Below are positions 5,207 through 8,034 of a DNA stretch of 64,000 nucleotides, piece by piece (positions within the stretch are counted from its first letter, which is position 1; every line of letters starts with the position of its first letter). The notes under the pieces were generated by a model. That model ran no database searches and was not told where the DNA came from. It saw only the letters and a list, made by a program, of their open reading frames with translations. The translations under genes were made by a program, and so were the position numbers. Source of the DNA: Octopus vulgaris (lineage: Eukaryota); the NCBI GenBank assembly GCA_951406725.2, contig OX597837.1, positions 2,232,001 to 2,296,000 on the forward strand, in the 5' to 3' direction.

Positions 5207-6180
5207 TACGCGTATACATACGTACATATTCGTATATACATATACACCCACATGTTGCGTTTTATTACATTTATACGAACGTGCATCGATTATGACGTTG
5301 TTCACCCCAGCAGACACACAGACGCATTCACACTTTCCCACTTAAATAAGCATAGATATTATATTCAAACTTACATCCATACATACAAACTTTCATACAT
5401 ACAAACATATATATATATATTTATATATATATATATATATATGTATGTATATATATATATATATATACACACACAGACACACACACACGTATACATACAC
5501 TTTTGTACATACGCGCATACATACATACATAGAGATATATAGGCATACATTCATATGTGCATGCAGATATAGCTACGTACGTACGTGGAACATATTGATG
5601 TGGCTGTGAGAACTGTAAGCCTCTCTTTCATTCGCATAATCGCTCTGGCTTCGAGCAAACAAGCAAAGGTTGTTCTCCATATATTTATAGATGCAGACGT
5701 TAATGAATATGTATTTATGCAGGCATGTATGCATGTATGTACGCATGAATATATAAATGTAAGTATATATATATTTATATATATATATATATATATAAAA
5801 TGAGATAGGGGTTGAAAATTCAACCCACCATGGGATAATATATATCCAATATACTGCTAGATAGGTACCCAACAAAAATTAATACATAGATGTTAGAAAT
5901 TGTCAAGCAATCAGTTCATCTATTGTATTAAATGGGTAAGGGTAATAATATTACCGTAAATTAATACTACAAAATTAGAGAATGGAGAAACATACTTAAA
6001 TCAATAAAGCATCAACTATCCGATGATACTCAATCCATACTTTAATACACCATTACATAGGAGTAAAGGCAATATATAAAATGAAATGAGATATACAGTA
6101 ATAGTAAAAGTAAAAGTAAAAGTAAAAAGATAAAGAGATATAAGTAAAAAATTACAAATACAATATGCAAATAAATCAAA

Positions 6181-6290
6181 ACTGACAGCTGTTTCGGCAG
6201 TGAGGACAGTCATACCTCATTTAACCTATAAGCCATAAAGGCAGGTATAAATGAGGCATTAACAAAGATGCCCCACGGCCTCTTCAGAGA
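6181..6290 (-). ncRNA. Type I hammerhead ribozyme motif with long stem II insertion
   Basis: Reverse complement of the 7678-7787 copy: CTGAAGA-GGC...GCC-GAAA-CAGCTG-TC. Confidence 0.75.
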
Positions 6291-6631
6291 ATTAAATTAA
6301 ATTTGTTATAATAGTGAAAAATATTATATAATCATATACATATAAATATAAAAATATAAAAAAGTAAAATATAAAAACTTATACATCATAATGCTACACT
6401 TGTATAATATAATACATATTTGTACAAAAAGGAAGGTAACCAGAACAAAATAAAACAAAATATATAACAGTGTATATATAATATTAATAAGTACCGATAT
6501 CATACATATTTAGCTAATAGTTTTTTTTATAAAAAAAGGGGCTAACACATATGGAGATGAAAAATAATAATAATTAAATCCGTGGTACAGTTCATAAAAT
6601 TCTAAAGCTATAAAAGTTAATAAAAATTACT

Positions 6632-6668
<37 letters not shown>

Positions 6669-7677
6669 GTAATAATAATAAAAAATAATAAAAATAGATA
6701 CAGTTAAGTTATCACCAAGTCCATCCTTCCAAGATCGAAATAACTATGAGTTAAGAAATGCTGACCACTAGGTAAAGAAAATTTAGATTAATTCGATTGG
6801 CTATTGGTTTGAAATTTAAATCACAAAAGAAAATTATACGGTTGGTTAGTCAGGGAACGCCAATATTCACACACGCATCTACAGATCAATCGCACATACA
6901 CACATAGTTATATGTATATACATACACTTGTACATATACATAATCATAAGCAACAACTAACACTTAGATAAACAAATAGGGAAGCAACCATGCTAACACT
7001 AAGTCCTTCAAAATTATAACTGAGCCTCAATAACAAAAAAAGAACCATCCATGCATTCTATAAAATATTTAATTAAGATATAAATGTATTTTTAAATATC
7101 AGTATGTTACTAATTCAGATAATTATTTCATGGGTAACTTAAAATTTGTAACACCGGTTTGTTGCAGAGTAAACATACGGTTGTTAGATTTATCGTAAGT
7201 TTGTTATGATTTAAAGTACGCTAAATTATAAAATATAAAATATAAAATATATTAATTTAGATATTATAAATAAGTCACTTATTAACTTAATAAATATAGT
7301 GCCAAAATATATCAGTTTAGGCAATAAAAAATAGAGGGGGAAGTATTAATGTAAACGCTTATGAGAACATCACAGAAATTTTAAATAAATTTTATATTAT
7401 AAAGACTTAATATGAAAAGAGATAAAATAAATAAAAAGGAATAAATACGAAGGAATAAATACGGTTATACACATAATTATAAGTACAAACTAGTATATAT
7501 GTATTCATATATTATTAAAATAAATAAAAATAAATGATAGATATGTATGTATAAAACTACACCAGTATAAGTAAATAAGTAAAGAATAAATAGGTAACAA
7601 ATTAAATGACATATTTTTATATTTATATGTATATGATTATATAATATTTTTCACTATTATAACAAATTTAATTTAAT

Positions 7678-7787
7678 TCTCTGAAGAGGCCGTGGGGCAT
7701 CTTTGTTAATGCCTCATTTATACCTGCCTTTATGGCTTATAGGTTAAATGAGGTATGACTGTCCTCACTGCCGAAACAGCTGTCAGT
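7678..7787 (+). ncRNA. Type I hammerhead ribozyme motif with long stem II insertion
   Basis: CTGAAGA at 7681-7687; stem II GGC/GCC extended by GTGGGG/CCTCAC and the hairpin GCCTCATTTA..TAAATGAGGT; GAAA at 7773-7776; palindromic stem III ACAGCTGT; predicted cleavage after GUC at 7784; stem I very short. Confidence 0.75.
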
Positions 7788-7998
7788 TTTGATTTATTTG
7801 CATATTGTATTTGTAATTTTTTACTTATATCTCTTTATCTTTTTACTTTTACTTTTACTTTTACTATTACTGTATATCTCATTTCATTTTATATATTGCC
7901 TTTACTCCTATGTAATGGTGTATTAAAGTATGGATTGAGTATCATCGGATAGTTGATGCTTTATTGATTTAAGTATGTTTCTCCATTCTCTAATTTTG

Positions 7999-8034
<36 letters not shown>

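Follow-up and report, generated by a model that had tools for sequence, protein, structure and literature searches.

An inverted-repeat insertion with paired long-stem hammerhead motifs in Octopus vulgaris derives from a young Penelope-like element

Insertions of Penelope-like elements (PLEs) often carry an inverted, 5′-truncated copy and a 30-40-bp tail at one end, as described in PMC8557442 and PMC3846280. The Hydra clade is characterized in PMC8557442 by RW[K/R] and DKT motifs, a CxCX5C linker, CxxC and CxH flanking the E and N residues, a C-terminal GIY-YIG domain, (TA)n targeting and a hammerhead near the 3′ end, and an inverted 5′-truncated copy is recorded there for Penelope-13_HM (Craig et al. 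2021). For the anole element PAc, both target strands are reported to be cut and extended, with reverse transcription starting at two internal sites that bound the tail; the PAc ribozyme requires protein for cleavage, and insertion in vitro can do without the ribozyme (PMC11167929). Minimal PLE hammerheads are described as opposite-strand pairs 100-700 bp apart, with dimer dependence and low activity (PMC4209133). The origin of the inverted ends and one-sided tails, and the role of the hammerhead, are stated as open questions in PMC8557442 and PMC11167929.

We analyzed a 64,000-nt stretch of Octopus vulgaris DNA (contig OX597837.1, positions 2,232,001 to 2,296,000; hereafter the window) in which a preliminary description had singled out a young 2.2-kb element with inverted arms. 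The features of this insertion are as follows.

5749..5797, no strand: (TA)n target, left flank; it shares a few bases with the end of the tail, and a target-site duplication (TSD) is not readable
5795..5968, - strand: tail (end B), a conserved RNA with a predicted fold that ends just past a terminal hairpin; 98% match to tandem-unit positions 1-174
5969..6357, - strand: 3′-terminal 389 nt of the direct (sense) copy, with the hammerhead in sense, by sequence comparison
6183..6289, - strand: hammerhead, mirror copy; core from 6287, predicted cut between 6184 and 6183
6358..7610, - strand: interior without coding sequence, belonging to the 3′ UTR of the 5.6-kb autonomous element; aligned over its full length, at 96-99.6%, with the sequence that follows the ORF in long copies
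About 6690..6790 (reference 4770-4870), - strand: 5′-end cluster of other family copies (19 of 63 5′ ends in 100 nt, of which one or two may be alignment breaks at an adjacent (TAT)n run); candidate transcription start or reverse transcriptase (RT) stall point
7611..7999, + strand: inverted second arm, tailless, ending at end A; blunt head-to-head junction
7679..7786, + strand: minimal type I hammerhead motif: stem I of 2 bp, then CUGAAGA, a stem II of 85 nt, GAA, a palindromic stem III that lacks a loop, and GUC; predicted cut 7784/7785
8000..8285, no strand: (TA)n-rich target, right flank, by sequence

The arms were reverse complements at all 389 of 389 positions, at the coordinates first given for them, and were the longest inverted repeat recovered by an inverted-repeat search of the window. 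Pairing broke directly outside the arms, with mismatches at 5968/5967 and 6358-6360. The 1,253-nt interior has 22.9% GC and lacks a long ORF, in agreement with its earlier reading as AT-rich and non-coding. In the sense of the element, which is the - strand, a body truncated at 7610 leads into the repeat end and then the tail; the right arm is joined bluntly, head to head, to the truncated body at 7610/7611, and (TA)n borders the insertion on both sides. Beyond the left arm lies a 174-nt extension without a counterpart on the right. The preliminary description had reported about 170 bp of unique sequence there; it was correct as to length and side, but the sequence is not unique, as it is the tail of a repeat family.

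That family emerged from a genome search of the kind first proposed for copy number, arrangement and a partner element. Searching the window's genome (2.8 Gb) with the arm returned 1,005 candidates. Among the 40 that were scored, two arms on other contigs were 100% identical to the window arm, which bears out a recent origin. Matches occurred as direct pairs about 5.6 kb apart and as inverted pairs at variable spacing, the arm spacing across loci being about 0.5 to 8.4 kb. The tandem unit, first read from 20 fetched regions, spans 5,578-5,593 nt and consists of the tail, an ORF, a 3′ UTR of about 2.4 kb and the ribozyme-bearing end; the 5,593-nt unit encodes an RT (YRDD) and a GIY-YIG-like sequence. 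In the full-length copy L112, a single uninterrupted ORF of 947 aa runs from the first Met, which lies about 315 nt past end A, so that the tail is wholly upstream of the ORF. Its product shows YRDD, VVY..YIG, R, E and N, and is an RT with a GIY-YIG-type endonuclease (RT-EN) by motif and homology. Across copies, pseudo-LTRs stand in partial tandem or inverted layout, with variable 5′ truncation and an optional one-sided tail. The window feature is the 3′ 1.8 kb (3′ UTR, ribozyme and tail) of this 5.6-kb autonomous PLE plus an inverted second end, and the locus is what a young Hydra-type family of roughly a thousand copies ordinarily produces. The tandem and inverted copies and the RT-EN ORF confirm the earlier identification of a PLE with an inverted pseudo-LTR and a one-sided tail. 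The further proposal of a non-autonomous PLE holds for the PLE but not for a separate non-autonomous family, since the interior is autonomous 3′ UTR and the 5′ truncation is a one-off.

Among the matches listed, the best homolog of the ORF was an Octopus sinensis protein (100% identity over 38% of the query), followed by at least 119 homologs at about 30-62% identity. Many homologs carry a precomputed PF26215 annotation; a Pfam search of the 947-aa ORF returned no family, and a PDB sequence search gave nothing significant. An alignment of 15 proteins contained RWR, DKT, YRDD, CNCRNKNKC, VVY..YIG, CSLC..E..N..CIH and two Asn-rich insertions. The Hydra-clade RWK motif, which replaces GxKF/Y, is present as RWR, with RWK or RWR in the same column of the homologs, and the DKG-to-DKT change is present in SDKTNN. 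The C-terminal endonuclease has the CxCX5C linker (CNCRNKNKC), lacks CCHH, and has CxxC and CxH around E and N (CSLC-INE; N...CIH). By eye, the ORF resembles the Hydra proteins printed in the supplement of PMC8557442. (TA)n was found at the window flanks and at the ends of 40 loci, and all classified ends run into (TA)n. Judged by protein motifs rather than by tree, the family appears to belong to the Hydra clade; a Neptune assignment was dropped against the Hydra definition. NCBI labels clade proteins from Octopus and Argonauta (P0001, P0004, P0108) as "GATA zinc finger domain-containing protein 14-like" or "uncharacterized protein", probably because of the Asn-rich inserts.

We also considered a programmed RT/EN frameshift or an intron, as 22 of 30 assembly copies (chosen by a frameshifted query) split the frames at a C run. 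Both were rejected: an in-frame allele is present in contigs of two putative RNA runs and one DNA run (986/1,236 depth in X15), single long ORFs exist, and the O. sinensis protein reads through. Contigs of the putative RNA runs cover the ORF and the ribozyme; splice joints were absent from them, and A>G changes were no more frequent than in the DNA run. As contigs are blind to ends, strand and rare variants, this carries no weight for or against expression, splicing or editing. The one-base difference at the C run between most assembly copies and short-read contigs (L031:4225-4240 and the matching sites in L051-L080) suggests a systematic homopolymer error that would make the family look dead in the assembly.

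Each arm had been credited with an intact hammerhead with a structured stem II of about 85 nt, the two lying on opposite strands. The strands and the stem II stand, as does a canonical core in each arm; "intact" calls for two qualifications: stem III is loopless and stem I has 2 bp. With the core assigned by hammerhead position numbering, the + strand order is CUGAAGA (7681-7687), stem II (7688-7772), GAA (7773-7775), ACAGCUGU and the predicted cleavage nucleotide C7784, and the core lies 208 nt upstream of end A. Stem III (ACAG/CUGU, 7776-7783) is a palindrome whose 4-bp monomer hairpin cannot close; as an intermolecular 8-bp palindrome, its predicted duplex energy is -12.5 kcal/mol. Stem I has only two contiguous pairs beside the core in the window copy and two to four in 18 variants. 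CUGANGA, GAAA, NUH and three helices are all present, stem III as an intermolecular duplex only, and forcing the monomer into an active-like fold was predicted to cost +5.2 kcal/mol over the minimum. Rfam reported no hammerhead at the gathering threshold in the window, nor at E<=10 in 5500-8300. Stem II (85 nt, about 33 predicted pairs) lies far beyond the published Hydra range and folds at -38.0 kcal/mol (z -6.36), with none of 200 shuffles equally stable. The window ribozyme is predicted to be of the dimer-dependent type, which would need a dimer (two RNAs or tandem copies) or the help of a protein in order to cleave. Activity at the window locus is unlikely because the sense ribozyme would follow its perfect complement in a read-through transcript and needs a partner copy.

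With core and stem III fixed and a gap of 70-100 nt allowed, a search pattern matched at least 1,860 genome sites, compared with 0 for the reversed control. A similar pattern with a 40-69-nt gap gave 16 matches, and a looser one with a 10-39-nt stem II gave 2,459 (control 2); as these patterns differ in stringency, the counts show two size classes, not ratios. Rfam misses ribozymes with a long stem II, so standard searches would overlook these sites, which number at least 1,860 in the genome. The long-stem pattern had 0 matches in metagenome contigs. The 2,459 short-stem motifs share the palindromic stem III, have a stem II of about 21-29 nt (e.g. L176-L190) and often form opposite-strand pairs a few hundred bases apart. 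They are likely to belong to other PLE families; homology to the 947-aa ORF was found within 1.5 kb at one of 15 short-stem loci, and they were therefore left without family assignment.

The window's young subfamily accounted for 981 exact 33-nt matches, and stem II measured 84-102 nt across the fetched subfamily variants. Three distant stem II variants folded beyond their shuffles (z -2.5, -3.1 and -4.9). Because RNAalifold, given the mixed 85/100-nt alignment, found no more than the base of stem II, pairs were counted on the window's structure, a choice that favors that structure: on 18 of 25 distinct variants, 82.9% of cells were paired. Both-sided changes occurred at 10 of 36 pairs (reached by 12 of 500 shuffles; slid controls, 1-4 pairs) and the covariation score was reached by none of 500 shuffles, with support strongest in the basal helices and weak at the apex, and with relatedness inflating such scores. 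These comparisons suggest that the long stem II characterizes the lineage, apparently under selection for its structure; it is most likely tolerated, or serves as a binding or regulatory hairpin. In both examined copies of an older subfamily (L129, L130), a U-to-C core change replaces CUGAAGA with CCGAAGA, possibly a core variant or a loss of activity.

The tail is also predicted to fold (-42.7 kcal/mol, z -4.37). In an alignment of 14 subfamily sequences with about 74-91% identity to the window tail, 97.8% of cells were paired, with compensatory change at 5 of 42 pairs (1 of 500 shuffles). End B falls directly after the terminal hairpin, giving a tail of 171-186 nt, and because the tail is long the two end classes are unmistakable. 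For a census, we took 40 chromosome-1 loci in positional order from the first 100 listed long-stem sites; 38 belong to the window's subfamily group and 2 to a sister, with more distant subfamilies and two loci fetched earlier left out. Inverted arrangements made up 21 of the 40, all head to head. In 19 of these, one arm stopped at end A (-35 to +13 of the reference end) and the other at end B (+171 to +186), with no AA and no BB pair; in the remaining two, one arm fell short by about 170 nt. If each end were chosen independently, 19/19 AB would have a probability of at most 0.5^19. Non-inverted census ends were 17 A (one a duplicate match) and 4 B. In a similarity-picked set of 20 loci plus the window, all 15 inverted insertions, the window's included, were AB.

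We conclude that the window feature is very probably one (TA)n insertion of a young autonomous 5.6-kb PLE with Hydra motifs, made up of a tailed, 5′-truncated sense copy and a shorter, untailed inverted copy, likely from two RT primings on the two cut target strands. The arms themselves bear on the number of primings. Among the 19 AB pairs, the untailed arm extended beyond the other on the 5′ side by more than 20 nt in 8 and the tailed arm in 7; in the remaining 4 the two came within 20 nt of each other. In those 8 pairs neither arm contains the other, which points to two separate primings. Plain fold-back copying of one cDNA or antisense template, the self-priming model proposed in PMC3846280, cannot produce such pairs, in which each arm has sequence that the other lacks. 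Fold-back within the same family nevertheless remains a minority possibility: at 3 of 25 inversion junctions the two arms have a common first base and overlap as an exact palindrome of 11-14 nt, and several more have arm starts within 20 nt. The arms of a pair are also 96.8-100% identical, compared with a median of 93.6% between the window arm and other family arms, although two primings on one RNA would be expected to give high identity as well. In the window insertion, all of the untailed arm is included in the tailed one, so that fold-back copying could have operated there.

The other readings fare worse against the family data than two primings on one autonomous RNA. A distinct non-autonomous 2.2-kb unit, retrozyme-like or of fixed length and functioning through 389-bp dsRNA and ribozymes on both strands, would fit a window copy that encodes no protein and the many short copies that begin in one 100-nt interval (19/63). 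The window breakpoints (3943/5208 on the reference) recur at none of 60 other loci, however, the interior is collinear with the autonomous 3′ UTR, and retrozymes are described as tandem monomers (bioRxiv 10.64898/2026.07.22.740005); we regard this reading as very unlikely and largely refuted. That the perfect inversion is an assembly artefact might be argued from the 100% identity of the arms, from homopolymer indels in the assembly's other copies, and from a junction unbridged among the contigs listed from four short-read DNA runs, which by itself says nothing either way. Yet 34 examined loci show the same architecture, with strict one-sided tails and differing breakpoints; such a regularity of A and B ends is not what an artefact would repeat, and we consider an artefact extremely improbable. 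As the preliminary description foresaw, the insertion looks like a DNA-transposon MITE and is not one. Long, perfect terminal inverted arms (389 bp) around AT-rich, non-coding DNA in a TA context give that appearance, to which we attach next to no credence: arm length and spacing vary, direct-tandem and solo copies occur, the tail is one-sided and long copies carry an RT-EN ORF. Fixed TIR ends, uniform length, a constant TSD and a transposase partner were not found.

A model of two primings can be drawn by analogy with the anole PAc element. The RT-EN protein would bind the folded tail region and nick both strands of the TA repeat; one strand would prime cDNA at B and the other at A, and both cDNAs would stop early and then be joined head to head. 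Two primings per insertion are termed twin priming. The hammerhead is inherited cargo of the repeat end, likely idle at the window locus. Read-through from either side would make an antisense arm first and a sense ribozyme second, with only one sense ribozyme per transcript, an order that would favor the 389-bp duplex over the ribozyme fold; dsRNA from the window, put forward in the preliminary description as an ADAR/siRNA substrate, is thus plausible if the locus is transcribed. More speculatively, octopus Hydra-type PLEs may use a previously undescribed two-part RNA machine, in which a hammerhead with a selected 85-100-nt stem II as binding or regulatory domain is combined with a 170-185-nt folded tail whose edges fix the start sites of two RTs, one per cut strand, making every inverted insertion a twin-primed one with exactly one tailed arm. 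We offer this idea tentatively and consider it doubtful.

The window also holds other retroelement sequences. An old, broken remnant of another Hydra-like PLE lies at 53967-55187 on the - strand, in three segments with 37-42% identity to the family protein; a weak hammerhead-like string occurs further downstream of it, at about 52360. RT reading frames of a non-LTR retrotransposon (413 and 208 aa), which we take to be L1/Tx1-like by motif, are present at about 32660-34530 on the - strand. A 164-aa frame at 20222-20713 on the + strand resembles the C-terminal part of R2/R4-type elements, with its zinc finger and restriction-like endonuclease.

With about 1,000 near-identical ribozyme sites, an intact ORF and unmistakable end classes, the family lends itself well to study, both as a natural data set and as an in vitro substrate. 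A literature search that covered few subscription papers found no paper on long-stem-II hammerheads, in Octopus or in general, or on this octopus family. A 2026 annotation of O. vulgaris reports 31 recently active Penelope-like families, with no mention of hammerheads or Hydra in its main text, and the family may therefore already sit in that repeat library.

The octopus family shares with Hydra elements a single ORF, a C-terminal GIY-YIG domain, the clade motifs, (TA)n targeting and an inverted truncated copy; near its 3′ end it has a canonical hammerhead core, but with a stem II far outside the Hydra range. It differs in size: its unit is 5.6 kb, about twice the 1.1-3.0 kb of the elements listed in PMC8557442, where the clade is described as generally <3 kb. 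Unlike the Hydra elements described there, it has a 947-aa ORF with two Asn-rich insertions and a 3′ UTR of about 2.4 kb, and its tail is 171-186 nt compared with 30-40 bp. Stem II is 84-102 nt compared with 10-24 nt (stem plus loop) in the 26 Hydra rows of File S2; the nearest long stem II, and the longest entry of that file, is the 53 nt of PLE-X1_sMoe, flagged as deviating (PMC8557442). Hydra-1_Obim from Octopus bimaculoides (2,507 bp) is a different family with a different ribozyme and a 22-nt stem II (PMC8557442). With Penelope of D. virilis and Pen2a of A. vaga (PMC3846280) and with PAc (PMC11167929), the family shares a head-to-head inverted pLTR, an optional tail at one end and AT-rich targets. 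As in Penelope/Poseidon elements, some inversion junctions are palindromic, and Asn-rich ORF inserts are found as in A. vaga (PMC3846280); those elements belong to a different clade and have tails of 30-40 bp. The start of the ORF is overlapped by the repeat or tail in PAc and Pen2a; the octopus tail lies wholly upstream of the ORF. Like the minimal PLE hammerheads of Cervera and De la Pena (2014; PMC4209133), the octopus motif is type I, with a palindromic or absent stem III, a short stem I (2 bp in D. virilis) and poor expected cleavage in vitro; unlike them, with helix II of 4-8 bp, it has about 33 predicted pairs in stem II. Non-LTR (animal) retrozymes likewise carry a type I hammerhead related to PLE repeat ends and, like the window copy, lack coding capacity, but they are head-to-tail tandem non-coding monomers, and the window copy comes from an autonomous element by truncation and inversion. 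PLEs with inverted ends, with one-sided tails and with ribozymes paired on opposite strands have been published before; the long stem II, the long folded tail and the strict one-tail rule are modest new details that make the open mechanism testable.
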